Positions 3,520 to 58,093 of a stretch of DNA of 64,000 bases are shown in pieces. The stretch comes from an uncultured Clostridia bacterium (lineage in GTDB: Bacteria; Bacillota; Clostridia; Christensenellales; UBA1242), in NCBI GenBank assembly GCA_944381215.1, contig CALWKF010000002.1, positions 55,174 to 119,173 on the forward strand. Direction: 5' to 3'. The notes under the pieces were generated by a model. It was not told where the DNA came from. It did no database searches and worked only from the letters and a program-made list of their open reading frames with translations. Numbering within the stretch: position 1 is the first letter of the stretch; each line of letters opens with the position of its first letter. Made by a program: the position numbers and the translations under genes.

Positions 3520-5430
3520 TTACTTAATTTCTTTTGTATCGATTTCATGTTGAAGTGATTTTACGAAGTCACTTAAATTGAATTTCCCTAAATCACCTGC
3601 TTTACGGTGGCGAACAGAAATTTTGTTTTCTGCCATTTCTTCATCGCCAATGACTACCATATAAGGCACTTTTTGGAGTTGTGCCTCACGAATCTTGTAG
3701 CCTACCTTTTCGTTGCGCTCATCAAACTCTACTCTAATACCTGCCTTATCTAACTTCTCCGCAATCTCGCGTGCGTAGTCGTTTTGCTTTTCCGAAATAG
3801 TAATAATTTGCACTTGTACTGGAGCGAGCCACAATGGAAATGCGCCTGCAAAGTTTTCGGTCATTATACCCAAGAATCTATCAATTGAGCCGTAAATCAC
3901 GCGGTGAATCATAATCGGTTCTTGCTTTGAGCCGTCGGCATCAATATAGTATAGTTCAAAACGCTTTGGCAACTGCATATCGAGTTGAATCGTACCGCAC
4001 TGCCAAGTTCTACCAATGGCATCTTTAATATGAATATCGATTTTCGGGCCATAGAATGCGCCGTCGCCCTCGTTTATTGAGTACTCTTTGCCGAGATTTT
4101 TAAGCGTGTTTTTGAGTGCGGTCTCCACCTTTTCCCAGTCTGCTACATCGCCGATGTGGTCCTCGGGCATGGTGCTGAGTTCCAAAGTATAACTTAAATT
4201 AAAGACTTTATATGCCTCATCGACAAGTTTTAGGACGTTTGCAATTTCGCTCTCGATTTGCTCGGGCAACATAAATATGTGTGCATCATCCTGGGTAAAT
4301 GCGCGGACTCTAAACAAGCCGTGCAGTGTACCGCTAGCCTCTCTGCGGTGTACTTTACCCAATTCGCCGACTCTGAGCGGAAGGTCCTTGTATGAGTGGA
4401 TGTTCTCCTTATAAAAGAGCATGCACCCTGGGCAGTTCATAGGTTTTATAGCGTAGTCCTTGTCCTCATCGGCCTTAAAGGTATACATATTTTGCCTATA
4501 GTGGTCCCAGTGGCCCGAGACCTCCCACAACTCCCTACTCATGGCGGTCGGGGTCTCAATTTCGACATACCCTGCCTTTTTGTGAATTTCGCGCCAGTAC
4601 TTGATTAGTTCATTTTTAAGTATCATACCCTTAGGCATATAAAATGGCATACCTGGGGCGTACTCGCTGATAAAGAACAGGCCCAGTTCCTTTCCTAACT
4701 TGCGGTGGTCGCGCTTTTTAGCCTCTTCAAGCATAGTTAGATACTCATCGAGTTCGCTCTTTTTCGGGAATGAAGTACCATATATACGAGTTAGCATCTT
4801 GTTGTGCTCATCGCCCTTATAATATGCGCCAGTCACTGACTGCAACTTAAAGGCCTTTATGATGCTGATATCATCAAGGTGTGGCCCACGGCATAAGTCG
4901 ACAAGTTCGCCGAGTTTATAAATAGTCAAAACCTCATCATCAGGAATTCCCTCCAGGATGTCGAGTTTATATGGCTCGTTAAGTTCGGTAAAAATTTTTT
5001 GCGCCTCTGCTCGCGTAACTTCCATTCTCTCAAAAGGCACTTTTTCCTTAATAATTTTGCCCATTTCCTCTTCAATTTTAGGCAAATCATCCTGCCCTAT
5101 TGGCTCTTTAAAATCGAAGTCGTAGTAAAAGCCGTTCTCGATTGCGGGGCCTATACTAATCTTGGTATTTGGGTACAATCTCTTAACAGCAAGTGCCAGG
5201 ATGTGCGCAGAAGAGTGACGAAAGACCTCAAGCCCTTCCTTGTCCTTTAGAGTAACAATCTCGACTAGATCGCCCTCCGCAACTTTGGTAGCAAGTTGGC
5301 AGAGTTTGCCGTTCACTTTTCCCGCGATTGCGTTGCGCGCTAACCCTTCGCTAATCTTTTTCGCGACATCCATTACGCTTGCGCCCGCTTCCATTTCTAA
5401 TTTAGAGCCATCTTTTATTAAAATAATCAT
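3520..5430 (-). CDS. thrS: Threonine--tRNA ligase
   Basis: TGS domain, second additional domain, class II core and anticodon-binding domain are recognisable (HSSAHILA, RGPH, FRVRAFTQDDAHIF). The probable start is MIILIKDGS at 5430, preceded by a GGAGAA RBS. The track ORF runs upstream to 5472. Confidence 0.95.
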   Translation of the reverse strand: MIILIKDGSKLEMEAGASVMDVAKKISEGLARNAIAGKVNGKLCQLATKVAEGDLVEIVTLKDKEGLEVFRHSSAHILALAVKRLYPNTKISIGPAIENGFYYDFDFKEPIGQDDLPKIEEEMGKIIKEKVPFERMEVTRAEAQKIFTELNEPYKLDILEGIPDDEVLTIYKLGELVDLCRGPHLDDISIIKAFKLQSVTGAYYKGDEHNKMLTRIYGTSFPKKSELDEYLTMLEEAKKRDHRKLGKELGLFFISEYAPGMPFYMPKGMILKNELIKYWREIHKKAGYVEIETPTAMSRELWEVSGHWDHYRQNMYTFKADEDKDYAIKPMNCPGCMLFYKENIHSYKDLPLRVGELGKVHRREASGTLHGLFRVRAFTQDDAHIFMLPEQIESEIANVLKLVDEAYKVFNLSYTLELSTMPEDHIGDVADWEKVETALKNTLKNLGKEYSINEGDGAFYGPKIDIHIKDAIGRTWQCGTIQLDMQLPKRFELYYIDADGSKQEPIMIHRVIYGSIDRFLGIMTENFAGAFPLWLAPVQVQIITISEKQNDYAREIAEKLDKAGIRVEFDERNEKVGYKIREAQLQKVPYMVVIGDEEMAENKISVRHRKAGDLGKFNLSDFVKSLQHEIDTKEIK

Positions 5431-11085: not shown

Positions 11086-11090
11086 CCCAC

Positions 11091-11491
11091 CCTGTAGCAT
11101 GGTCTGTAAGCCGAGTTCTGTCGAGGACGGCCATCTATCTAGACACTTTGTCGCCAAAGTGTTCAAGCGATGTATAGCGGGAGCGAGCGGGCAACTCTTA
11201 TTTGCCCCCTTATCTTGCACAAGGTGGGGTTTACAGAGCGTACAAATATCACTATCCGTACCGGTGGTCTCTTAAACCACCTTTCCATCCTTACCGCTGT
11301 AACTTTTTGTGAAAAAATAGGAGGTATGATACTTAATATCAAAAAACACAAAAATAGACAAATTAGCGGCGGTTTATTTCTGTTGCACTTTCCTTGGAGT
11401 CGCCTCCACAAGATGTTATCTTGCACCTTGCCCTGCTGTGCTCGGACTTTCCTAATTTGCGGTTGCAAATTCGGCCGCCCGACCAGCTACA
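11091..11491 (-). ncRNA. rnpB: RNase P RNA (about 401 nt, probably type B)
   Basis: Minus strand carries AGGAAAGTCCGAGC (the conserved GAGGAAAGTCCGGGC block) and ACAGAACTCGGCTTACAG (the ACAGAA.CCGGCTTA block). P1 pairing joins TGTAGCTGGTC (5') to GACCATGCTACA (3'). The region is GC-rich, and its overlapping ORFs are spurious. Confidence 0.85.
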
Positions 11492-19090: not shown

Positions 19091-19360
19091 ACTGTGCTAG
19101 ACGGGGAGCTAGCGGTGCCCTGTACCTGCAAACCGCTTTAGCAGGGTCGAATGCCTTTCTCGGTGGTGCGTTAGGTTTGGCACGTGTTTAGTATTTTGTG
19201 ATGAACGTTAAGGTCTTGTGCAATACTGCCCTACGAACCGTGTCAGGTGCGGAAGCAAGCAGCACTAAGGAGTGTGCAGTATGTGCCATAAGGTCGCCTT
19301 GCGGGAGCATTTTACTAGATGACGACCAAGTCTTTCCCCAACAAAAAAGGTTGCACAGTA
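19091..19360 (+). ncRNA. ffs: Signal recognition particle RNA, long Bacillus type with Alu domain (about 270 nt)
   Basis: GTCAGGTGCGGAAGCAAGCAGCAC matches the domain IV motif GUCAGGUCCGGAAGGAAGCAGC. AGCGGTGCCCTGTACCTGCAAACCGCTTTAGCAGGGTCGAATGCC closely matches the B. subtilis scRNA Alu-domain sequence as I recall it. The 5' ACTGTGC pairs with the 3' GCACAGT. Confidence 0.82.
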
Positions 19361-28634: not shown

Positions 28635-29213
28635 TTACTTCGCAATTTTGACCATTGCCACGCGCACAACGCCGTGAGGACTAGAAAAGCCTGATTTTAA
28701 CTCTTCTATAATCTGTCCGCTTGGCACGTCGTGGTTTTCCTCTGCAACGACTACATTGTGCAGATTCGGGTCGTACATTTTGCCGACCGTTTCGATCGGC
28801 TCGATACCCAGGCCTCGCAAATTGTCGATAAACGCGCGCTCAATCATATCAAAGCCCTTTAACGTGTTTTCGTCCGTAATGTGCTTTTTTGCCGATTGAA
28901 TGGCATCAAGTGCAGGAAGTAGTGCCTTGACTGCGTCAAAAATGCCGTTTTGGCGCGCATCACTCGCGATACTTGCGTTGCGCTTTCGATAATTTGCAAA
29001 ATCTGCCTGTAATTGCTGTACTAACTTAGTAAGCGCTATACTATTTTCTTTTTCTAATTGAAGTTTGAGGTTCAAATCCTCAGGCGGTGATAGCTCCTCG
29101 TCTATCACTTCGCTTTCCCCCGCTACCAGGTCATCTTGACCAATTTGAGCCTCATTCTCGAGGCTCGGTTCCGTTTCAGTCTCGTGCTTCAAGTCGTCTT
29201 TATTTTTGTTCAT
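28635..29213 (-). CDS. grpE: Nucleotide exchange factor GrpE
   Basis: FANYRKR motif and a C-terminal beta-domain (G.V.....GY..........V.V). Operon position also fits. Confidence 0.9.
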   Translation of the reverse strand: MNKNKDDLKHETETEPSLENEAQIGQDDLVAGESEVIDEELSPPEDLNLKLQLEKENSIALTKLVQQLQADFANYRKRNASIASDARQNGIFDAVKALLPALDAIQSAKKHITDENTLKGFDMIERAFIDNLRGLGIEPIETVGKMYDPNLHNVVVAEENHDVPSGQIIEELKSGFSSPHGVVRVAMVKIAK

Positions 29214-30258
29214 CTTTATCTCCTTTATTAGAATCTAGTGCTTTAAGGTTGGCAAACTCGCCAACTACGAATTTTAGCGCACTAGCGATTTTTGCGTAAT
29301 CCATTCGCTGTGGGCCGATGATGCCGATACTTGCGATACTTTCGCCGTCAATTGTGTAATCGGCGCGCGCCACGGCGCAATCTTGTAGTTCCGTAACTGG
29401 AATTTCGGTCCCTATTCTAAACGAGATTTCCTCATCATCTGGTTCGTCGAAAATCTGCTCTAGGTCTTTTGGATTACTGAGAGCATCGATAACTCGCTTT
29501 GCCTTGTCTAAGTCGTGGTACTCTGGGCTGTTTAGTAGCCTTAGTTGACCCCGCGCTGTAAAGCCACCAGACGAGGCAATTTTGTCGCAAAGGCATTTAA
29601 GTGAGTCGATCATTGTGTCGAAAATTCCGCAGAATTCCGCTAGGTCCTTGCCCATTTGCACGCGGTAATTCTCGATATTTTGAATCATGTCCGCCACGCT
29701 GTGTTCCGCGAAAGTCGTGGTTAAAAAGTTGCTTGCGTCGACATAAGTTTGTGTTGGGATATCGACTTTTGCGGGCATAAAGTTGTTTATAATTCCGCTG
29801 TTTGTCTCGATTAATATCAGTGCCTGCCCTGTCATAAGTGGAACAATTTTTACATTTTTTATAATCAGCTTTTCAAAGCCCTTTAGCATTACGACCGCTG
29901 GATAATTTGTGGCCTTGCTCACGATATCTGCAATTTCGTTTACCATGTCGCCTAAGTATATCGACCGATTTTCAAAAATGCCGTGAATCTCGTCGAGAAC
30001 AGCCTTGTCAAGCGGAACATCGCCCATAATCGAGTTCACGAAATAACGATAGCCCTTTGCTGTGGGGACACGGCCACTCGATGTATGTAATTGCCTAAGA
30101 TACCCCATTGCCTCGAGGGCATTTAGCTCGTTTCGCAAGGTCGCGGTGCTCAAGTTTTCACTGCAATGGGACCGAATGTTACTGCTCGTAATCGGGCTGG
30201 CGGACTGAATATACTCCTCGACCGCATTTAGCAAGATGTCGCGCTTTCTGTCGCTCAA
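29200..30258 (-). CDS. hrcA: Heat-inducible transcription repressor HrcA
   Basis: N-terminal wHTH (ILLNAVEEYIQSASPITSSNI...LSTATLRNELNALEAMGYL) and first position in the operon behind CIRCE. The start codon is uncertain: TTG at 30258, but the frame stays open upstream to the GGAGG RBS. Confidence 0.9.
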   Translation of the reverse strand: MSDRKRDILLNAVEEYIQSASPITSSNIRSHCSENLSTATLRNELNALEAMGYLRQLHTSSGRVPTAKGYRYFVNSIMGDVPLDKAVLDEIHGIFENRSIYLGDMVNEIADIVSKATNYPAVVMLKGFEKLIIKNVKIVPLMTGQALILIETNSGIINNFMPAKVDIPTQTYVDASNFLTTTFAEHSVADMIQNIENYRVQMGKDLAEFCGIFDTMIDSLKCLCDKIASSGGFTARGQLRLLNSPEYHDLDKAKRVIDALSNPKDLEQIFDEPDDEEISFRIGTEIPVTELQDCAVARADYTIDGESIASIGIIGPQRMDYAKIASALKFVVGEFANLKALDSNKGDKDEQK

Positions 30259-30467: not shown

Positions 30468-30519
30468 AAGCGGAATGAGATTCTTCGTCTCAGGCTTCGA
30501 GGGGCGGGCTCAGAATGGC
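30468..30519 (+). repeat. Dispersed intergenic repeat, copy A
   Basis: AAGCGGAATGAGATTCTTCGTCTCAGGCTTCGAGGGGCGGGCTCAGAATGGC. Confidence 0.85.
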
Positions 30520-30588: not shown

Positions 30589-30640
30589 AAGCGGAATTGA
30601 TTCTTCGTCTCAGGCTTCGCGGGGCGGGCTCAGAATGACA
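30589..30640 (+). repeat. Dispersed intergenic repeat, copy B
   Basis: AAGCGGAATTGATTCTTCGTCTCAGGCTTCGCGGGGCGGGCTCAGAATGAC, nearly identical to copy A and 121 bp downstream of it. Confidence 0.85.
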
Positions 30641-30780: not shown

Positions 30781-32799
30781 TTAGGCAAAATCGTCGTAGT
30801 TGTTGGTTTGGTCGTTTGTGGAGGAATCGGTGTCTACGGCTTCAAACACGGCCTTGATTACCTTGCCGTTTACCTGTTCTTTGGTGAGGCTGATGTTGGT
30901 GGAGGTGCCAAAGGTCTCGTCCTCGTCGTTTGCGTTTACCCAGCCTACGAAGCGGTAGCCTGAATACGCAAGGGCTATGAATGTAACTGTGTCGGTATCT
31001 TCGCCGTTTGCGATGTCGTTACCCACCATGCGCACCTCGCCCCCCGATGTCGCTGTTGCCACTGTGCCAACTATTCCTACTCCGCCACCACCATTCACGG
31101 TCGGAGGAATTTCGTATTGAGGTCTAGTTGTGGCGAGGTTGAATACCACAGTGCTTGCGGCCATTTGGTTTTCAAATTCCATTATGAACAAGTTCGTGGC
31201 GTCCATTGCGGTGTAGCGCACGTTTAGAGAATTGCCAGCACCGTAAATTGTGGCCTTGTAGTATGTAGGGGTTATGGTTGCCCCGTCAATAGTTATGGTA
31301 TTCACGTACCGCCCTGTTTGCGGGTGCGCAATCACGTACAAAATGTCGCCCTCTCTAAACGACTCAATCGTACCACTCCCGCCCGCGAATGAGGCATTTA
31401 TTCCCACACTTGTGGCGGTTACATTAATATCTTTCATCAACGCACGAATTATTAACATAATTGAGCCGTTTTCGTCGTTGTAGCACTTATATTGATACTG
31501 ACCGTCAACATTTATAAATATGCGGGCACTCGCTTCGCTCGCGCTGATGATTATAGGGTTGTTGTCGATCGTTAGACTTATTTTTGATACATTCGATGTT
31601 TTTGGACTAAATGTTAATGTAACTACATCTTCCGTGCCGTCCTCATTTGTTGAGTATGTGGATGTTACAGACACATTGTCGTCCAGCGTGGTCGTAACTG
31701 CGCCATTCACCGCGCTAAGCGCGGCAGTATCAAGGTTTAAGTGAAGCGCTGCCCGCACGCCGTAGCTAGAGCGGACATAGTAAGCGCCAATCGAGGAGCC
31801 GCCGGAGGAAGAAAGAGGGTAAGCAGAGTTCGAATTACTACAGTAACCAGACCGCGACCACCAATTAGTAGAAGCTGAGCGTTCTGTTTTGGATAGCCCC
31901 CATATTCCAGAATCGGAATCGCTAGTACCAGTTTCTGAAATACTAGGTATCCATAAGTAGTCTGCACCCCATTGAGTGTAGTAACCTTTCGTTTGATATG
32001 AGTACGCAGAGGCATCATCCTGAAACCAGCCTGTCGTTATGTTAGTAGCTAGGGACTCGTTGTTTAGCGTGTAGTCCATTGGGTTATCGCCACCAAGCAA
32101 TTGAGGCTCGGTTTGATACCATACATTGTTAGGCTGCACAAGGTATTGCGTTAGCCCAAGAGAAGGGGCTGTATAGAGTGCGTATTTGTGTGTAGTAGAA
32201 GGGCTACCAGCACTAACTGTAGTGGTAGGGGTTGAGCTGTTACTCGTAATATTTATATATTGCCCACCATTATTTAGGGTAACCGCACGAATGTGACTCG
32301 TACCATACATAGAGGTAGGAAAACCGCTGGTAAAACTATCTGGACCATAATTGGAACTACTATTACCATATGTGGCTGTACCATCATTGTTTGCCATTAA
32401 AAGAGTGGCTATACGATTTCCATAGTTATCTTTTGTAAGGTATACCACCTGCCATTGATAATTGCCTAGGGTTACTACTACTGCCTGGCCATTCGTTTTA
32501 CCGCCATAGACATATCCGCGGATGTTTTCGGCATTTTGATTGTTAGTATTTACACCTTCAATGGTGCCGTCACTTGATATATAGCTTAAAAGTGTACGCA
32601 TATTGGTTAAATCAAATGACTGGGTTGCGCTGTCCCAAATATTGCCAACTGTAACTGCATTTGAACTGCTTACACTGGTAAAGGCGTCGACTCTGTTGTT
32701 TATATTTGGTGAAAATAACAAAGATAATAATAGTGTCGATATGCTGAAAATTCCAACGATTACTGCCATTACCCCTGTTTTGACCTTTGATAACTTCAT
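30781..32799 (-). CDS. Cell-surface protein with an N-terminal signal/anchor and a C-terminal Listeria-Bacteroides (Flg_new) repeat
   Basis: N-terminal hydrophobic segment (VMAVIVGIFSISTLLL). The body is Ser/Thr/Asn/Gly-rich, and the C-terminus carries GYRFVGW, typical of the InlB-B/Flg_new repeat. Confidence 0.65.
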   Translation of the reverse strand: MKLSKVKTGVMAVIVGIFSISTLLLSLLFSPNINNRVDAFTSVSSSNAVTVGNIWDSATQSFDLTNMRTLLSYISSDGTIEGVNTNNQNAENIRGYVYGGKTNGQAVVVTLGNYQWQVVYLTKDNYGNRIATLLMANNDGTATYGNSSSNYGPDSFTSGFPTSMYGTSHIRAVTLNNGGQYINITSNSSTPTTTVSAGSPSTTHKYALYTAPSLGLTQYLVQPNNVWYQTEPQLLGGDNPMDYTLNNESLATNITTGWFQDDASAYSYQTKGYYTQWGADYLWIPSISETGTSDSDSGIWGLSKTERSASTNWWSRSGYCSNSNSAYPLSSSGGSSIGAYYVRSSYGVRAALHLNLDTAALSAVNGAVTTTLDDNVSVTSTYSTNEDGTEDVVTLTFSPKTSNVSKISLTIDNNPIIISASEASARIFINVDGQYQYKCYNDENGSIMLIIRALMKDINVTATSVGINASFAGGSGTIESFREGDILYVIAHPQTGRYVNTITIDGATITPTYYKATIYGAGNSLNVRYTAMDATNLFIMEFENQMAASTVVFNLATTRPQYEIPPTVNGGGGVGIVGTVATATSGGEVRMVGNDIANGEDTDTVTFIALAYSGYRFVGWVNANDEDETFGTSTNISLTKEQVNGKVIKAVFEAVDTDSSTNDQTNNYDDFA

Positions 32800-50260: not shown

Positions 50261-50605
50261 TTATAATCCTAGACTAATTAGGAGTGCATTATCGATATTT
50301 TCGAGCGTTTTTGCGTCGGTGTTACCTATTTTTTCAAGGAGACGAGCCTTGTCTAACGTGCGAATTTGCTCGAGCAGGACTACGCTATCCTTCTCTAACC
50401 CATATAGGTGCGCTGGGAGTTCGATGTGCGTGGGGAGTTTTGCCTTGTTGATTTTACTGGTGATTGCTGCCACAATTACTGTGGGACTGTATTTATTGCC
50501 AACGTCGTTTTGGACAATTAACACAGGCCTAACACCGCCCTGCTCGCTCCCTACAACTGGGGAAAGATTTGCATAAAATATGTCGCCTCGCCTAATTAGA
50601 TCCAA
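50261..50605 (-). CDS. mazF: Type II toxin-antitoxin system toxin, MazF/EndoA (PemK family) endoribonuclease
   Basis: [45 protein letters not shown] is near-identical in pattern to B. subtilis NdoA. It lies downstream of acpS as in Bacillus. Confidence 0.92.
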
Positions 50606-50786
50606 TGTCGTGCTCCTTTAACCACTGCTCGTATTTTGAGAAATCATCAAACTCGCCCCATATTTCCTTTTCGGTAAAGCCAGCGAATTTTTTAAAGTCG
50701 TTCTTTACCATTATATGAGTGCGCTTTATCCGTTTGTGCGGAATAATTTTTTGTAATGCTTTACTATATTTTTTGATATCTTGCAT
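50592..50786 (-). CDS. Putative antitoxin partner of MazF (unrecognised fold)
   Basis: A 64-aa ORF (or 39 aa from M26 at 50711) overlaps the mazF start by 14 nt. I saw no RHH or AbrB-like signature. Confidence 0.4.
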
Positions 50787-52457: not shown

Positions 52458-53651
52458 CTATTCTACATTTACCTTTATGATAGTTTTCTTGCCTTTCTTT
52501 AAGACAAACTCCGAACTTGGGCAAGTGTAGTCGAGGCTCGTGATAGTTTCGTCGTTAACCTTTATGCCACCGCCCAAAATCAACTTTTTAGCGTCTCCGC
52601 GAGAGGAGGCAAGCCCTAATTTTACTAGACAATCGATGATTCCTAGGTCTGCCTTGGTAATTTTAGCCTCGGGCATATCGTTAACATCGCCACCAAAGGC
52701 TGCACGGGCCTGATTTAAAGCCATCTTTGCGCTCTCCTCCCCGCGCACGATTTTGGTTACTTCGTAGGCGAGGCGTTCTTTGGCCTTATTAATCTCTTTA
52801 CCAGTGCCCTTGCAAATTTCCTTGATTTCGTCTAGCGGAAGCAAGGTAAGGATACAGAAAACCTCCTCGACCTTGGTATCCTCGATATCGCGGAAGTACT
52901 GGAAGAAGTCGTAGTCGCTAAACTTTTCGCGGTCGAGCCACACTGCATTGCCTGCGGACTTGCCCATTTTTTTGCCGTCGGCCCTAGTAAGTAGCGGGGT
53001 TGTGAGGCAGAAAACAGGGTTTTCCTCTTTTCTGCGAATCAGCTCGACACCTGCTAGCATGTTTGCCCACTGGTCACTCCCGCCGAGTTCCAACTTGCAG
53101 TCATAATTTTTGTACAAGTACCAAAAGTCGTAGGCTTGCATCGGCATGTAGTTAAATTCGAGGAAACTGAGACCATTTTCCATGCGCTGTTCAAAGCACC
53201 CCGAGCTCAACATTTTATTAACGCTCATATTGAGGCCCACGGTGTTTAAAAAATCGATGAAACCTAGGTCCTTAAACCAGTCATCGTTATTCACGACCAC
53301 TAATTTATTAGGTACATTTTGGTCAAAAAAGGACTCAAGTTGGGCCTTGATTTTGCGGACATTTTCGTCGCGCTCGGCTTGTGTAATCATGGGGCGCATG
53401 TCGTTTCTGCCTGTTGGGTCGCCGATTCGCCCCGTTGCGCCACCAATAAGTGCGATTGGTGTATGCCCCGCCCTTTGCATACGAATTAATTGTAAAATCG
53501 AGGCGAGGTGCCCTACGTGTAGGCTGTCTGCTGTTGGGTCAAAACCGCAGTAGCATACGATTCGCTCGGAGTCGAGGAGTTTACTCAATTCCTCCTCGTA
53601 AACTGTTTGGTATACTAGACCGCGTTCTTTCATTTCGTTAAATAGATTCAT
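52458..53651 (-). CDS. tyrS: Tyrosine--tRNA ligase
   Basis: HVGHL (HIGH), KMGKS (KMSKS) and a C-terminal S4 domain. Confidence 0.95.
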   Translation of the reverse strand: MNLFNEMKERGLVYQTVYEEELSKLLDSERIVCYCGFDPTADSLHVGHLASILQLIRMQRAGHTPIALIGGATGRIGDPTGRNDMRPMITQAERDENVRKIKAQLESFFDQNVPNKLVVVNNDDWFKDLGFIDFLNTVGLNMSVNKMLSSGCFEQRMENGLSFLEFNYMPMQAYDFWYLYKNYDCKLELGGSDQWANMLAGVELIRRKEENPVFCLTTPLLTRADGKKMGKSAGNAVWLDREKFSDYDFFQYFRDIEDTKVEEVFCILTLLPLDEIKEICKGTGKEINKAKERLAYEVTKIVRGEESAKMALNQARAAFGGDVNDMPEAKITKADLGIIDCLVKLGLASSRGDAKKLILGGGIKVNDETITSLDYTCPSSEFVLKKGKKTIIKVNVE

Positions 53652-53895: not shown

Positions 53896-53910
53896 TTAAA
53901 TATATTGGGA

Positions 53911-54021
53911 GTGCGACTTTGCACCGCGCCAGCCCCAAGTAATTTAGATTTATTGCGTGTACGATTTGATTAATTATCGTGTATACGACTTTGCACCGTG
54001 CCAGCCCAGTGATTTAATTAG
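53911..54021 (+). repeat. Two direct repeats of about 36 bp downstream of the 138-aa gene
   Basis: GTGCGACTTTGCACCGCGCCAGCCCCAAGTAATTTAG (53911-) and ATACGACTTTGCACCGTGCCAGCCCAGTGATTTAATTAG (53983-). Confidence 0.75.
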
Positions 54022-54025
54022 CCAA

Positions 54026-54442
54026 TTATCTAGACATAAAGTCCTCGATGGAAGTTTGGGAGACTTTGTCTTTTACTTGGTGCGTGATGCGGTAGTAATA
54101 ATCTTCGCAAGGCTTTACTAGGCTCTTTTGCTCTTGTGTGGGCACGTGCATTGCCTTTAAATACTGCCTATAATTATTGATATAATTTAGGCCGAATTTT
54201 TTAATTAAAAAAGCCTTGTGGACAAAGTCGTCCTCGTAGTCCTCGACAACTTGCTCCACGTGTGTTTCCTCGTCAGTTGCCTCACTTACGGCATAAAAGT
54301 CGAGCAAAACGCCGTCAACATGGCCCAATTTATCAGTCATTGGCTCGAAATGAATGTCGCTTGACACCGAATAACCTTCACCGCAAATTACAATGCCTGC
54401 GTACTCGTTCCAATCTTCTTTATTTAATTTTTCTACAAACAT
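54026..54442 (-). CDS. Hypothetical acidic protein
   Basis: 138-aa ORF with a plausible RBS. No motif recognised. Confidence 0.5.
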   Translation of the reverse strand: MFVEKLNKEDWNEYAGIVICGEGYSVSSDIHFEPMTDKLGHVDGVLLDFYAVSEATDEETHVEQVVEDYEDDFVHKAFLIKKFGLNYINNYRQYLKAMHVPTQEQKSLVKPCEDYYYRITHQVKDKVSQTSIEDFMSR

Positions 54443-54605: not shown

Positions 54606-55292
54606 ATGAAAATTAACGATTGCTATAAAGTAAATTCTTGTCCACACTCTGGACCTGCGCCCATCCCGCAAGAGGGCGAATTTACGCAAGTAAAAGACAT
54701 TACCGAGATTTGCGGGTTTAGTCATGGTTGTGGGAAATGCGCACCGCGTCAAGGTGTATGCAAACTCACCTTGAATGTCAAAAACGGCATAATAAAAGAG
54801 GCTTTAATTGAAACCGTTGGTTGTAGTGGTATGACGCACAGTGCGTGCATGGCGGGCGAAATTCTGGTGGGCCTAACTCTACTCGAAGCACTGAACACCG
54901 ACCTTGTTTGCGACGCGATAAACGACGCGATGAAGGACATTTTCCAGCAACTTGCCTACGGGCGCAGTCAAAGTGCCTTTTCAATTGGAGGCTTGTCGAT
55001 TGGCGCGGGGGTTGAGGAACTGGGCTCCACCCACCACAGCCGTGTTGGCACTGTATACAGTAACGACAAGGCGGGTGTTCGGTACTACAACACGACCGAG
55101 GGTTACACTACTCGCCTTGCCCTCGATGAAAATAACGAGATAATCGGTTATGAGTACGTAAACTTGCCGAGATTGCTAAAAAACATCCGCGCTGGCATGG
55201 ATGCAAAAGAGGCCCTAATAAAGTCTAGCGGGACTTATGGCAGATTTGACGAAGGCAAGGCTTATATCGACACAATGGAGGAAAACATATGA
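54606..55292 (+). CDS. NifU/IscU N-terminal-like Cys-rich protein (partner of the GGGtGRT protein)
   Basis: Cys pattern CGKC...ETVGCSGMTHSACMAGEILVG..LLEA resembles the IscU scaffold fold. Its ATGA overlap with the next gene suggests coupling. Confidence 0.55.
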   Translation: MKINDCYKVNSCPHSGPAPIPQEGEFTQVKDITEICGFSHGCGKCAPRQGVCKLTLNVKNGIIKEALIETVGCSGMTHSACMAGEILVGLTLLEALNTDLVCDAINDAMKDIFQQLAYGRSQSAFSIGGLSIGAGVEELGSTHHSRVGTVYSNDKAGVRYYNTTEGYTTRLALDENNEIIGYEYVNLPRLLKNIRAGMDAKEALIKSSGTYGRFDEGKAYIDTMEENI

Positions 55293-56290
55293 CAGAAAAG
55301 TATTTCACGGGTTACAGTGAGCGCGCCGACGGCATTCGCTCCATTCTCAAAAAATATGGCATTTCTTCCATTGAGGAGGCGTATTCCCTCGCCGAAGGTG
55401 TGCTAAACTGCGAAGATTTTGTTAAAAAAGTCCAGCCGATTGTATTTGATAACGCGGTTTGGGCGTTTCGAATCGGTGCTGCACTTGCGGTGAAAACTAA
55501 AACTACCGACCCAAAACAGATTGCTCTACTTTTAGGGGAAGCGTTGCAGGCATTTTGTATACCTGGCTCGGTCGCAGCGAGGCGTCAGGTAGGGCTTGGA
55601 CACGGGCATTTGGCGGCAACTTTGCTCGATGACCGCACAAAGTGCTTCTGCTTCATCGCGGGGCACGAGTCTTTTGCGGCGAGCGAAGGAGCGATTGCGC
55701 TGGCAACCAGTGTAAATCACGTGCGCTCTACCCCATTAAAAATTATTATTAATGGCTTGGGGAAAGACGCTGCGTACATTATTAGCCGTATTGGGGGATT
55801 CACATATGTGCAGACCGACTATGACTACAATCGCGACAAGTTGATTGTTAAGTCCGAGCGCAAATTTGGTTCGGGCGACCGCAGTAAAGTGCGCGTTTAC
55901 GGGGCTTTGAGCGTTAACGAAGGGGTTGCAATTTGTGATTATGAGCAAGTTGACATATCAATCACGGGTAATTCGACCAACCCGACGCGTTTTCAGCACC
56001 CAGTGGCGGGTATTTATAAAAAAATGCGCGTTAATCAAGGACTCCCCTACTTCTCGATTGCAAGCGGTGGCGGGACTGGTAGGACCTTGCACCCAGACAA
56101 TTTAGCAGCGGGCCCCGCAAGTTACGGACTCACCGACACTATGGGGCGTATGCACTGTGATGCGCAGTTTGCTGGTAGTAGTTCTGTCCCCGCCCATGTG
56201 AATATGATGGGATTTGTTGGAATGGGAAATAACCCGTTAATGGGGTGTACTGCTAGTTTAGCTGTGCGACTTAGTGAACTTATTAAGTAG
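55289..56290 (+). CDS. GGGtGRT family protein (uncharacterised)
   Basis: The eponymous motif SGGGTGRTLHP is encoded at about 56061-56090. The 333-aa length is typical of the family. Confidence 0.8.
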   Translation: MTEKYFTGYSERADGIRSILKKYGISSIEEAYSLAEGVLNCEDFVKKVQPIVFDNAVWAFRIGAALAVKTKTTDPKQIALLLGEALQAFCIPGSVAARRQVGLGHGHLAATLLDDRTKCFCFIAGHESFAASEGAIALATSVNHVRSTPLKIIINGLGKDAAYIISRIGGFTYVQTDYDYNRDKLIVKSERKFGSGDRSKVRVYGALSVNEGVAICDYEQVDISITGNSTNPTRFQHPVAGIYKKMRVNQGLPYFSIASGGGTGRTLHPDNLAAGPASYGLTDTMGRMHCDAQFAGSSSVPAHVNMMGFVGMGNNPLMGCTASLAVRLSELIK

Positions 56291-56773
56291 TTGACATTCC
56301 AACGCAGAACCGCACTTTTGTTTGTTTCGGTTTTGTTGAGTGCGAGAGTTTGACTATACCCTATTCAATCAGGGTAGTCGGCTGAGCAAAAGTGCATGTT
56401 TCCAAGTTGGAATGGGAAATAACCCGTTAATGGAGTGTACGGCGAGTCTTGCTGTAAAGTTGAGTGAGTTGATTAAGTAGACAATTCCAACGCAGAACCG
56501 CACTTTTGTTTGTTTTGATTTTGTTGAGTGCGAGAGTTTGACTATACCCTACTCAATTAGGGTAGTTGGCTGAGCAAAAGTGCATGCTTCCAAGTTGGAA
56601 TGGGAAATAACCCTCTTATGGAGTGTACGGCGAGTCTTGCCGTAAAGTTGAGTGAGTTGATTAAGTAGACAATTCCAACGCAGAACCGCACTTTTGTTTG
56701 TTTCGGTTTTGTTGAGTGCGAGAGTTTGACTATACCCTACTCAATTAGGGTAGTTGACTGAGCAAAAGTGCAT
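56216..56773 (+). repeat. Tandem array of three units (190, 188 and about 180 bp), each with a copy of the last 24 codons plus stop of the GGGtGRT gene and a structured spacer of about 113 nt
   Basis: Units begin with GTTGGAATGGGAAATAACCC at 56216, 56406 and 56594. The in-frame TAG stops are at 56288-56290, 56478-56480 and 56666-56668. Spacers run 56291-56405, 56481-56593 and 56669-56773. Confidence 0.95.
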
Positions 56774-56800
56774 AAAGGCGGAAAAATAATTAATATAAAA

Positions 56801-56831
56801 AGAGTGAAAATATATCTTTCACTCTTTTTTT
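56801..56831 (+). terminator. Rho-independent terminator closing the GGGtGRT operon and repeat array
   Basis: AGAGTGAAA-atatatc-TTTCACTCT followed by TTTTTTT. Confidence 0.7.
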
Positions 56832-56837
56832 GTTATA

Positions 56838-56870
56838 AAAAAAGCCTAGGAAAAACCTAGACTTTTTAAA
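56838..56870 (-). terminator. Rho-independent terminator of tuf
   Basis: Minus strand TCTAGG-ttttt-CCTAGGC followed by TTTTTTT. Confidence 0.6.
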
Positions 56871-56881
56871 GTGAGTATTAA

Positions 56882-58093
56882 TTAAGCCTCAATCTTGGTT
56901 ACAACACCACTACCTACAGTGTGGCCACCCTCACGAATAGCGAAGCGAAGACCCTCTTCGATAGCGATAGGAGTAATTAACTCAACTTCCATCTCGATAT
57001 TGTCGCCTGGCATAACCATTTCAACGCCACCAAGGAGTTTGATGGTACCAGTTACGTCGGTTGTACGGAAGTAGAACTGAGGACGGTAACCAGATACGAA
57101 TGGAGTAGAACGGCCACCCTCTTCTTTCTTTAGAATGTACACTTGTGCAGTGAACTTTGTGTGTGGAGTGATTGTCTTAGGAGCGGCAAGCACTTGACCA
57201 CGTTGGATGTCCTTACGCTCGATACCACGGAGCAAGCAACCAATGTTGTCACCAGCTTCTGCTTGGTCAAGCAACTTCTTGAACATCTCAACACCAGTAA
57301 TAACGGTTGTCTTTGTAGGACCCATACCAACGATTTCTACGGTGTCGCCTACTTTTACAGTACCACGCTCTACACGACCAGTAGCAACGGTACCACGGCC
57401 AGTAATTGTGAATACGTCCTCAACTGGCATAAGGAATGGCTTGTCGTTGTCACGAACTGGGTCTTTGAAGTAGCTGTCGCAAGCGTCCATAAGCTCGAAA
57501 ATGCACTTGCACTCCTCGCCGTCAACATTACCTGCAATAGCAGCATCGAGAGCACCCTTTGCACTACCACAAATAATTGGAGTTTCATCGCCTGGGAAGC
57601 CGTACTCGTTTAACAAGTCACGAATTTCCATTTCAACGAGCTCAATAAGTTCTGCACGGTCAGCTGGTGGAAGCAAGTCAACCTTGTTGACGAAAACAAT
57701 AATTGCAGGAACACCTACCTGACGAGCAAGTAGAATGTGCTCACGAGTTTGAGGCATAACACCAGCGTTTGCAGCAACTACCAAAATCGCGCCGTCCATC
57801 TGAGCAGCACCAGTAATCATGTTCTTTACATAGTCAGCGTGGCCTGGGCAGTCTACGTGTGCGTAGTGACGCTTTGCGGTTTCGTATTCTACGTGAGTAG
57901 AGTTAATTGTAATACCACGAGCTCTTTCTTCTGGGGTGTTGTCGATAGCTGCGTAGTCACGCGCTTCAGCCAAACCCTTCTTTGCTAATACTGTAGTAAT
58001 AGCAGCGGTCAAAGTTGTTTTACCGTGGTCAACGTGACCAATTGTACCCAAGTTAAAGTGGGGTTTCTTTCTTTCAAATTTTGCTTTTGCCAT
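56882..58093 (-). CDS. tuf: Elongation factor Tu
   Basis: [18 protein letters not shown] and NKVD motifs, with full-length similarity to EF-Tu. Confidence 0.98.

Follow-up and report, generated by a model that had tools for sequence, protein, structure and literature searches.

Results

Organisation of the locus

The window, a stretch of 64,000 nucleotides from an uncultured Clostridia bacterium, carries a gene whose product is a GGGtGRT protein (Pfam PF14057, E=3.6e-160), and directly behind this gene lies an array built from copies of the gene's own 3' end. The flanks of the array are housekeeping genes. The gene is highly conserved in gut bacteria, and several metaproteome studies of the gut and rumen report GGGtGRT proteins. 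The features of the locus are as follows.

54606-55292, same strand as the GGGtGRT gene: NifU-like gene, overlapping the GGGtGRT gene by 4 nt
55289-56290, plus strand: GGGtGRT gene, 333 aa (open reading frame and PF14057 match)
56216-56290, plus strand: cassette 1, the functional gene end (last 24 codons and TAG)
56216-56224: left arm, GTTGGAATG (codons V-G-M), of a 9-bp inverted repeat around cassette 1
56230-56248: quasi-palindrome AACCC-GTTAAT-GGGGT (codons N-P-L-M-G-C) within the cassette
56291-56405, plus strand: spacer 1 (post-stop segment, hairpin, then linker ATGTTTCCAA)
56295-56303: right arm, CATTCCAAC, of the repeat around cassette 1, 5 nt past the stop
56312-56320 and 56387-56395: perfect 9-bp arms, GCACTTTTG and CAAAAGTGC, of the spacer 1 hairpin, with a 66-nt interior
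56406-56480, plus strand: cassette 2, a displaced gene end, with G>E at an invariant Gly
56406-56413 and 56484-56491: repeat bracketing cassette 2
56481-56593, plus strand: spacer 2, hairpin arms at 56500-56508 and 56575-56583
56594-56668, plus strand: cassette 3, 95% identical to cassette 2
56594-56601 and 56672-56679: repeat bracketing cassette 3
56669-56773, plus strand: spacer 3, hairpin arms at 56688-56696 and 56763-56771
56797-56829: intrinsic-terminator-like hairpin, bidirectional, between the array and tuf
56882-58093, minus strand: tuf gene, convergent with the GGGtGRT gene

A first-pass annotation of the window had described three tandem units at this gene end, and the same units were recovered by translation and by Tandem Repeats Finder (56216-56773: 3.0 copies, period 188, 91% matches, score 914). 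Each unit, arranged head-to-tail, consists of a 75-nt cassette corresponding to the last 24 codons and stop of the GGGtGRT gene, followed by a hairpin spacer of ~113 nt; spacer 3 stops directly after its right arm and has no linker. Cassette 1 translates as VGMGNNPLMGCTASLAVRLSELIK, and cassettes 2 and 3 both as VGMGNNPLMECTASLAVKLSELIK. The only terminator-like site found 3' of the GGGtGRT gene is the one at 56797-56829, downstream of the array, which agrees with the earlier placement of the whole array within the transcription unit.

The tandem structure is real. The three units can be told apart by SNPs within one contig, and the spacer-to-cassette junctions, impossible in a single-copy locus, need at least two units. 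The same architecture appears in SPAdes, MEGAHIT and IDBA assemblies of unrelated samples, and the arrays of two genomes assembled independently (L010 and L016) show no difference along 412 nt. A second record of the window sequence (L017) contains a 100-N scaffold gap together with an exact 55-nt overlap, equal to window positions 56642-56696; because this 55-mer recurs in unit 2, the join between cassette 3 and spacer 3 is the assembler's choice, and the number of units in the window is at least three.

Arrays in related genomes

The first-pass annotation had asked whether other GGGtGRT loci carry such arrays and whether unit number varies, and both proved to be the case. Arrays of two to four units are present in ten uncultured Clostridia/Christensenella-like genomes from four clades, counting the window (WIN) and taking the identical L010 and L016 once. 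L035 has four units; WIN, L001 and L007 have three; L036, L015, L008, L010, L012 and L029 have two. On the gene tree the four array-bearing clades are separated by array-less clades, and no array was seen in a Christensenellaceae clade at 65% identity. Copy number differs even among close relatives (L008 two against L035 four, L001 three against L036 two, WIN three against L014 one), and empty sites exist in close relatives: L014 has one cassette and no hairpin, and L030 contrasts with L011.

The GGGtGRT gene is intact in every locus examined. At the arrays, direct repeats of its 3' end, 60-95 nt long and coding, flank inserted DNA of 26-115 nt that is free of genes, and displaced cassettes begin just 5' of the palindrome and end just past the stop. 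A junction motif, AAAAGTGYATGGGCTA..., is common to distant lineages. L015 has mixed units, the post-stop segment and left arm of unit 1 being of window type and those of unit 2 of L001 type. Gene content between the GGGtGRT gene and tuf varies among relatives. Longer 'GGGtGRT' proteins (384-460 aa) have internal duplications in distant homologues and were set aside as unrelated to the array.

Divergence of the cassettes

A recount of codon differences among the three window cassettes gave figures identical to those first reported. Cassettes 1 and 2 differ in nine codons and 14 nt, seven of the codons being synonymous and the others G>E and R>K, with the Glu of cassettes 2 and 3 sitting at a Gly invariant in every real gene examined. 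Cassettes 2 and 3 differ in three codons, all synonymous, through a change of the palindrome loop from GTTAAT to TCTTAT and one further synonymous change. The differences between cassettes 1 and 2 are unevenly placed, with the first 28 nt identical and the last 47 nt 30% diverged (0/28 against 14/47, p=0.0007). The spacers had been described as better conserved than the cassettes, and between units 1 and 2 they are (6/110 against 14/75 differences, Fisher p=0.007); spacers 1 and 2 share 94.5% identity, and the identity of spacer 1 with the two others spans 94-96%. Unit 2 is a mosaic, its left 28 nt equal to unit 1 and its right 47 nt going with unit 3, a pattern from which recombination among cassettes is evident. 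Over its last ~120 nt the window gene itself switches from L014-like to L001-like. In the search for a donor of cassettes 2 and 3, no sampled genome came closer than about 80%.

The first-pass annotation held that purifying selection on the peptide had shaped the cassettes and that a simple decaying duplication would not explain them, and this was upheld by simulation. In 2000 runs the gene copy was limited to synonymous changes and the cassette mutated freely. In three genomes there were cassettes for which neutral decay was rejected (P<0.0005 each), namely cassettes 2 and 3 of WIN, the extra cassette of L008 and the third one of L007; for each of these, 0/2000 runs brought the non-synonymous codons down to the observed number. 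The distal cassettes of L035 and L001 are compatible with neutral decay, as is L015. Summed over 12 cassettes, 57 codon differences are synonymous and 22 non-synonymous, and several of the latter are residues of real genes in other lineages (R/K, L/I, N/K, CT/CC). Lesions do occur in the cassettes of relatives, in the form of frameshifts, in-frame deletions, a lost stop and inconsistent start codons. The most decayed cassette is the distal-most in L035 and L001; in L007 it is the middle one and not the distal one.

We also compared the displaced cassette and the attached end for likeness to the functional end of a sister lineage, in the three lineages with an atypical attached end. The displaced cassette was the nearer in all three, at 37 against 28 of 45 nt in L015 and, with small margins, 40 against 36 in L008 and 36 against 32 in WIN. 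This leads us to propose serial replacement of the 3' end followed by local duplication. Taken together with the direction of decay, the cassettes nearest the gene look more recent than the distal ones, and the cassettes behave as former functional ends.

Inverted repeats and the hairpin

The 9-nt run of the repeat bracketing cassette 1 was matched by 0/500 shuffles. Its equivalent in relatives has different letters, which track each genome's own codons, and the repeat is also present in the array-less L006. The quasi-palindrome, whose counterpart in L010 is a perfect 22-nt palindrome, is where identical sequence gives way to diverged sequence and where most lesions in displaced cassettes fall.

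The spacer hairpin is closed by arms, AACCGCACTTTT ... AAAAGTGYAT, that are invariant in 12 spacers from seven genomes with just 72-86% identity between their gene bodies; the 12-nt left arm is fully invariant and the 10-nt right arm invariant bar one C/T position. Interiors differ, with an average identity of about 60%, and are homologous among the closer genomes (WIN, L001/L036, L008/L035); mini-hairpins with a deleted interior occur in L029, L007 and L015. The distance from arm to arm is nearly constant, at 77-81 nt across five lineages. RNAalifold on 8 and on 12 spacers found the closing stem alone conserved, with no internal consensus and essentially no covariation, and the idea of the spacer as a structured RNA was dropped. 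A permissive Rfam 15 search of the region returned sub-threshold matches only, all in or reaching into the terminator region, and at gathering thresholds the whole window yielded only RNase P and SRP RNA, located elsewhere, and no family for the spacer. Origin of the spacer as a decayed cassette copy was also rejected, the likeness seen by eye not being significant against shuffles (p=0.13-0.96).

Searches for mobile machinery

Pfam searches found no integrase, transposase or reverse transcriptase within about 6 kb on either side in the window record or beside the arrays of relatives, and no site-specific recombinase in up to 10 kb around the gene in relatives; genes 3' of the arrays gave only a RadC-like protein and unknowns, with no mobile-element hallmark. 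An nhmmer profile of the cassette revealed no larger element flanked by cassettes and no copy outside the arrays in any locus, and within the 64-kb window and the fetched loci the spacer was confined to the arrays. Against phage and plasmid collections, blastn gave no spacer or cassette match, and a scan of viral contigs with degenerate cassette patterns and tblastn gave nothing real; the only pattern match in IMG/VR was a chance match within a phage open reading frame.

Discussion

Proposed repeated replacement of a gene end

We propose, tentatively and at a little short of an even chance, that the array is a record of repeated replacement of the 3' end of the GGGtGRT gene by a hairpin-bearing module. 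The module would be a gene-less segment of about 120-190 bp comprising the last 22-24 codons with their stop, a short stretch behind the stop that matches the left edge of the cassette as its inverted complement, a hairpin carrying the conserved arms, and a short linker. Recombination between module and resident gene would take place at or close to the quasi-palindrome encoding N-N-P-L-M-G-C, so that the module's coding end becomes the new functional end of the gene and the old end, promoterless and detached, is pushed downstream to decay, beginning at the unstable palindrome. Resident units may also be gained and lost locally by unequal crossing-over, which would explain why cassettes 2 and 3 of the window are almost the same, and likewise its spacers 1-3. 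Cassette 1 would then be the current end, installed more recently, and cassettes 2 and 3 two copies of an older end in which G>E was gained after displacement.

Serial insertion of a small element bringing a new 3' end from a diverged homologue was among the explanations offered by the first-pass annotation, and it stands as the best fit as far as former ends, polarity and modular units are concerned. As no recombinase, parent element or dispersed copy was found, we infer the movement of the module (whether site-specific or homology-driven), the crossover site and a trans-acting recombinase. By analogy, the extent of the displaced cassettes would be the layout expected of an attachment-site identity segment that restores its target gene. 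Displacement of a 3' end is an established principle at tRNA, tmRNA and protein-gene targets, where displaced repeats are also known to form tandem arrays (PMC3146451; PMC5704250).

Several observations run against replacement. Spacer 1 resembles spacers 2 and 3 though the right part of cassette 1 is 30% diverged, and so the newest end was not simply brought in with a foreign spacer; the reading needs either a patch exchange or homogenisation at a later time. Counting L010/L016 once, seven of ten arrays terminate with a hairpin, partial or complete, and not with a naive resident end, and this calls for additional deletions or for duplication in situ. Identity between the gene end and the first extra cassette is 94-100% in L012, L029, L010 and L001, for which local duplication is the simplest account. 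The decay order in L007, the small polarity margins in L008 and WIN, and the failure of the searches to turn up a recombinase or mobile carrier also weigh against it.

Alternative explanations

The strongest alternative dispenses with a mobile module. The hairpin would be a 3'-UTR structure serving the host, and the array an old tandem duplication of the stretch running from cassette to hairpin, still growing and shrinking by unequal crossing-over, with patches of the attached or displaced cassettes overwritten by homologous recombination with diverged relatives; because such patches would come from the donors' functional genes, differences limited to synonymous ones would follow. We regard this as a serious contender, if on balance unlikely. 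It accounts for perfect head-to-tail units in which spacers are near-identical and one patch of 52 nt is highly diverged, for the near-identity of cassettes and gene end in L029, L012, L010 and L001, and for the L014-to-L001 switch in the window gene. It is also in keeping with spacer interiors that diverge roughly along the host tree, with the confinement of the spacer to the array, with the lack of a recombinase near the arrays and with the bracketing repeat of array-less L006. The shared junction motif is compatible with a single old origin, and changes in the closing stem are G-U-compatible, a hint of a role at the RNA level. However, RecA-type exchange is inefficient at 20-30% divergence with anchors of 13-28 nt, whereas three lineages or more show replaced ends. 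Bacteria readily delete direct repeats, and the persistence of neutral arrays across lineages whose synonymous sites are near-saturated would need a selection that this account does not supply. An elaborate RNA is not borne out by any internal consensus or Rfam match, and neither the polarity from proximal-new to distal-old nor the mixed units of L015 is predicted.

The replacement reading can be taken further, to an integron-like, hairpin-directed mini-cassette system of gut Clostridia. Here a gene-less module of ~190 bp, with the AACCGCACTTTT/AAAAGTGYAT arms as its recombination site, would repeatedly enter the 3' end of one conserved and highly expressed gene, bringing its own last ~22 codons and served by a host or trans-acting recombinase, and would be the smallest known target-repairing integrative element. 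We consider this specific form doubtful.

It is also conceivable, if very unlikely, that the units are stumps of full-size ICEs, IMEs or prophages that integrated at the gene's 3' end, lost their interiors and accreted in the manner of cis-mobilizable elements. Direct repeats of a 3' end around inserted DNA, accumulating in tandem, are the classical signature of such integration (PMC3146451; PMC5704250), and the variable gene content towards tuf would suit it. Random deletion remnants are, however, hard to reconcile with an arm spacing of 77-81 nt in five lineages and with homologous interiors in WIN, L001/L036 and L008/L035; no locus has a large element between cassettes, the variable downstream genes come without an integrase or other mobile-element hallmark, and the cassette was on no viral contig.

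A role for the extra cassettes as donors for the C-terminus, also raised at first pass, survives only in that recombination among cassettes is evident in the mosaic; a programmed function finds no support. A reservoir that switches the C-terminus by direct-repeat recombination or gene conversion, like the silent cassettes of antigenic variation, would be consistent with the mosaic of unit 2 and with window cassettes that share one orientation and are largely intact. The encoded peptides, though, nearly equal the functional one and leave nothing to vary, the sole real change falling on a family-invariant residue; many cassettes of relatives are frameshifted or truncated, conversion tracts would be rare at 30% divergence, and nothing points to a surface antigen in proteins reported from gut and rumen metaproteomes. 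We judge such a reservoir quite improbable.

Translation of the extra cassettes as micro-proteins of 22 aa or longer is more improbable still. The micro-ORFs noted at first pass are present in the list of open reading frames, with in-frame ATGs open at 56412 and 56600, the cassettes lie within the transcription unit, and their differences from the gene end are biased to synonymous ones. The real gene has GGAGG as its ribosome-binding site, but upstream of window cassettes 2 and 3 no Shine-Dalgarno sequence was found and so, judged from their sequence, the extra cassettes are not translated genes. The Glu at the invariant Gly speaks against translation as well. So do relatives: starts are not conserved, and frameshifts or truncations occur in L012, L029, L010, L001, L035, L036 and L015, the frameshifts, deletions and lost stop being the kind of damage that the annotation had itself named as fatal to its interpretation. 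A 46-aa ORF in unit 2 is not conserved in unit 3, and readthrough of the TAG was discarded when the frame proved to close after 21 codons. Finally, an assembly artefact in which strain variants of one locus were concatenated is barely credible, for although the scaffold gap and 55-mer overlap lie inside the array and a third contig stops 35 nt past the stop codon, the junctions and SNP-distinct units of one contig, the arrays from three assemblers and unrelated samples, and the array recovered identically twice all speak against it.

Significance

If modules of this kind truly move, they would constitute a minimal integrative element made up solely of attachment site, hairpin and a patch to repair the target gene, would illustrate how small the strategy of inserting at a gene end with a spare end can become, and would point to a new recombinase activity in a common, uncultured gut lineage. 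Even if nothing is mobile, the locus holds a fossil stack of gene ends recording 3'-end replacement and exchange across lineages in a core gene, and a strictly conserved 12+10-nt hairpin motif is defined. The array locus is also a recurrent source of assembly breaks and copy-number uncertainty.

Comparison with known systems

Diversity-generating retroelements, with their variable and template repeats, offer one parallel, in that a near-copy of the 3' terminal coding segment lies nearby and a hairpin follows the gene end. In those systems mismatches between template and variable region are confined to adenines and are diversifying, and a reverse transcriptase is nearby. The window substitutions are instead of all types and synonymous, and no reverse transcriptase was found in the annotated neighbourhood; DGR-like mutagenesis was rejected, the substitutions not being adenine-specific.

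The spacer of about 90-110 nt, with perfect 9-bp terminal inverted repeats, a variable interior, internal-deletion derivatives and a position right after the stop codon, recalls MITE and REP elements. These have many dispersed copies per genome and usually a target-site duplication of a few base pairs. The GGGtGRT spacer, by contrast, occurs at one locus in all available sequence, lacks the usual short duplication and is always coupled to an adjacent copy of the gene end.

Integron cassettes are diverse ORFs, and their attC hairpins have conserved AAC/GTT core triplets and a variable terminal structure. The array is similar in alternating a short coding segment with a long imperfect hairpin, in having newer proximal cassettes, and in a hairpin interior that may be a few nt or as much as about 66 nt long. 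In the window the outer hairpin arms ATTCCAAC / GTTGGAAT are mutually inverse and also inverse to the start of the next cassette, and TTCCAAC/GTTGGAA is a near match to the attC core RYYYAAC/GTTRRRY. Unlike in integrons, the AAC/GTT triplets are not kept in relatives (L001, L008, L035 and L010 have CCTAC/GTAGG), IntI was not found in the annotated neighbourhood of the array, the 'attI' would fall in coding sequence, and all cassettes encode one gene end. Integron core motifs, like dif/Xer-like ones, are matched only loosely and are not conserved between lineages.

Integrative islands differ from the array in that ours has only 26-115 nt of gene-free DNA between repeats, a conserved hairpin and no integrase or parent element in sight, and in that its repeats are long (60-95 nt) and protein-coding, with divergence that is visibly synonymous. 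With islands at ssrA/tmRNA and tRNA genes and with accreted cis-mobilizable elements (PMC3146451; PMC5704250), the array nevertheless shares an insert that supplies the 3' end and leaves the gene intact and, as in the repeats left by serial integration, old ends displaced downstream and stacked in one orientation with strain-variable content.

Results

At 56216-56773 the 3' end of the GGGtGRT gene is repeated in three head-to-tail units of 188-190 nt each, as the first-pass annotation had claimed and as direct reading of 55100-57400 and Tandem Repeats Finder both confirmed. Each unit is a 75-nt cassette, matching the last 24 codons and TAG of the ORF, followed by a spacer of ~113 nt.

Features at the array
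55289-56290, GGGtGRT-family protein ORF (PF14057, E=3.6e-160), sharing 4 nt with the upstream NifU-like ORF
56216-56290, cassette 1, the functional gene-attached end
56406-56480 and 56594-56668, cassettes 2 and 3, displaced copies
56797-56829, the only terminator-like hairpin 3' of the gene, downstream of the array as previously placed

Units 1 and 2 differ at 14 nt in 9 codons, seven of them synonymous and the others G>E and R>K, and all 3 codons differing between units 2 and 3 are synonymous; a recount matched the earlier codon list exactly. Between units 1 and 2 the cassette differences all fall on the right side (14/47, against 0/28 on the left; Fisher p=0.0007), and the spacers, already described as more conserved than the cassettes, have 6/110 against 14/75 (Fisher p=0.007). 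Upstream of the NifU-like/GGGtGRT pair lies a divergent 138-aa ORF (54026-54442, minus strand) with no Pfam match; related loci have an ORF of comparable length (137-167 aa), likewise unannotated, at this position, which suggests a conserved three-gene neighbourhood.

Other features of the window
11090-11490, minus strand, RNase P RNA (class A) gene
19092-19358, plus strand, large SRP RNA gene
30479-30517 and 30599-30637, 39-nt direct repeat, 97% identical, 120-nt spacing, between ORFs 29200-30258 and 30781-32799
50261-50786, minus strand, PemK/MazF-type toxin gene and small upstream ORF (annotation of the identical record L017), likely a toxin-antitoxin pair, adjoining acpS, recX and Impact_N genes
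53903-53935 and 53975-54007, 33-nt direct repeat whose two copies lie 72 nt apart and are 82% identical, intergenic, 5' of the gene for tyrosyl-tRNA synthetase (52458-53651, minus strand), with no T-box or other Rfam family at gathering score

An assembly artefact had been raised as a possible undoing of the array. Private SNPs distinguish the window units inside one contig, different pipelines working on unrelated samples gave equivalent arrays, and those of L010 and L016, two assemblies, are identical at 412/412 nt; the tandem arrangement is not an artefact. L017, a 113-kb scaffold encoding the same GGGtGRT protein, is identical to the window on either side of a 100-N gap whose flanks overlap by exactly 55 nt (window 56642-56696). 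Because this 55-mer recurs in unit 2, the window's join of cassette 3 to spacer 3 is only inferred, and the window copy number is at least three.

Scans and look-ups gathered ~40 related loci (L-numbers) from uncultured Clostridia/Christensenella-like gut MAGs, and arrays of varying unit number, which the first-pass annotation had proposed looking for, were indeed present.

Units per array
L035: 4
Window, L001, L007: 3 each
L036, L015, L008, L010 (= L016), L012, L029: 2 each

A neighbour-joining tree built on the gene body places the array genomes in four groups with array-less groups between them, and arrays are absent from clades further out, whose proteins are 77% and 65% identical. All arrays share one layout, in which the cassette is followed by a post-stop segment, then by left arm, interior and right arm, and a linker leads to the next cassette. 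Units behave as modules, because L015 combines a unit 1 whose post-stop segment and left arm are window-type with a unit 2 of L001-type.

What lies between the GGGtGRT gene and the conserved gene that follows it differs among relatives: window 56291-56881 is gene-free, L014 and L001 have an ABC-transporter-like ORF (587-604 aa), L015 a RadC-like gene and a membrane protein, and L002, L008, L035 and L042 a conserved 204-207-aa HExxH-containing protein. L013 is masked with N across its cassette region (3930-4152) and is labelled Alistipes finegoldii, yet its gene is 85% identical to the Clostridia-type gene, which probably reflects bin contamination. Among distant GGGtGRT homologues predicted from metagenomes, seven proteins of 384-460 aa (P0016, P0020, P0026-P0029, P0037) have internal duplications of 50-130 residues, which reflect either chimeric assembly or genuine tandem duplication within the gene.

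The window spacer is a long imperfect hairpin with perfect 9-bp arms, GCACTTTTG and CAAAAGTGC, around 66 nt; it matched no Rfam family and has no copy outside the array within the 64-kb window. Across 12 spacers from 7 genomes the arms are invariant (AACCGCACTTTT and AAAAGTG(C/T)AT), while the gene bodies are only 72-86% identical, and in five lineages the arms lie 77-81 nt apart. Interiors are homologous among closer genomes, yet diverged, and no consensus fold was found for them; mini-hairpins with loops of 0-6 nt occur in L029, L007 and L015. Each cassette also lies between the halves of a further inverted repeat: GTTGGAATG, which covers the V-G-M codons of the left edge, pairs with CATTCCAAC, 5 nt past the stop. 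It is found in L001, L035, L008, L014, the window and array-less L006, and its sequence is lineage-specific, tracking each genome's own F-V-G-M codons. Invariant arms and bracketing repeat form the unexplained core of the system and an obvious handle for finding an enzyme or RNA-level function.

In L006 the repeat is of 8 bp (TTTTGTAG / CTACAAAA) and brackets the last 24 codons at ~-79 and +8 from the stop; its sister L005 retains the post-stop half, but changed codons have abolished pairing. L011 carries, downstream of the stop and with no extra cassette, an ~85-nt degenerate hairpin whose arms are similar to the conserved pair, whereas in its close relative L030 the stop leads directly into the terminator common to both, so that the two differ only in having or lacking the hairpin.

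Discussion

Our best explanation, held tentatively at a little under an even chance, is that a small hairpin-bearing module has replaced the gene's 3' end serially, leaving the array as a record, with local unit turnover. The module would replace the 3' end and push the previous one downstream to decay, and units would also be locally amplified and lost. Polarity points this way: in three lineages the attached end is atypical for its clade, and the displaced cassette is nearer the sister lineage's functional end.

Match to the sister functional end
L015: displaced cassette 37/45 nt, attached end 28/45 nt
L008: displaced cassette 40/45 nt, attached end 36/45 nt
Window: displaced cassette 36/45 nt, attached end 32/45 nt

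The window gene itself turns from L014-like to L001-like across its final ~120 nt. Displaced cassettes start just 5' of the N-N-P-L-M-G-C quasi-palindrome and end just past the stop, a layout as would be expected of an attachment-site identity segment restoring its target gene. The N-N-P-L-M-G-C-C codons form a perfect 22-nt palindrome within coding sequence in L010 (3925-3946), L016, L012, L029 and L007, weaker in the window, and most indels of displaced cassettes fall in its loop.

The main rival is an old tandem duplication of cassette and host hairpin, in which unequal crossing-over would keep gaining and losing units and homologous recombination with relatives would supply patches. We consider it unlikely, but credible because of several misfits with serial replacement. 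No recombinase was found near the array, nor any parent element, viral copy or plasmid copy of the module; window spacer 1 is near-identical to spacers 2 and 3 although the right part of cassette 1 is 30% diverged; most arrays terminate in a hairpin remnant rather than a naive end; and the first extra cassette of several arrays shares 94-100% identity with the gene end, which is simplest as in-situ duplication.

Simple decay of a duplicate had been judged improbable from the start, and simulation bears this out for the intact cassettes. Under in-situ decay, with the gene copy accepting only synonymous changes and the cassette mutating freely, 5-10 non-synonymous codons are expected at the observed nucleotide difference counts; window cassettes 2 and 3 have 2, L008 has 0 and the third L007 cassette 2, and 0/2000 simulations gave counts as low. 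Over 12 cassettes, 57 codon differences are synonymous and 22 non-synonymous, several of the latter being residues used by other lineages' real genes. The intact cassettes therefore diverged at a time when they were still the ends of real genes.

They are no longer functional. Donation of new C-termini, a second early proposal, finds no support as a programme. A selected, translated peptide is rejected, since window cassettes 2 and 3 encode Glu where every real gene seen, distant family members included, has Gly, no Shine-Dalgarno precedes their ATG (the gene itself has GGAGG), and displaced cassettes in relatives carry lesions of the kind that the first-pass annotation itself held against its interpretation: frameshifts of +1 or +2 at the loop of the palindrome (L012, L029, L010), deletions of the palindrome, in frame or not (L001, L035, L036), loss of the stop (L015) and many mutations in distal copies (L035, L001).

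Serial insertion of a small element is the best of the three early proposals, favoured by modular units and polarity, and the first-pass interpretation as a whole is supported in part. Serial 3'-end replacement follows the same logic as the tandem accretion of integrative elements at the gene ends they target (PMC3146451; PMC5704250), from which the array differs in that its unit is gene-less and reduced to 120-190 bp.
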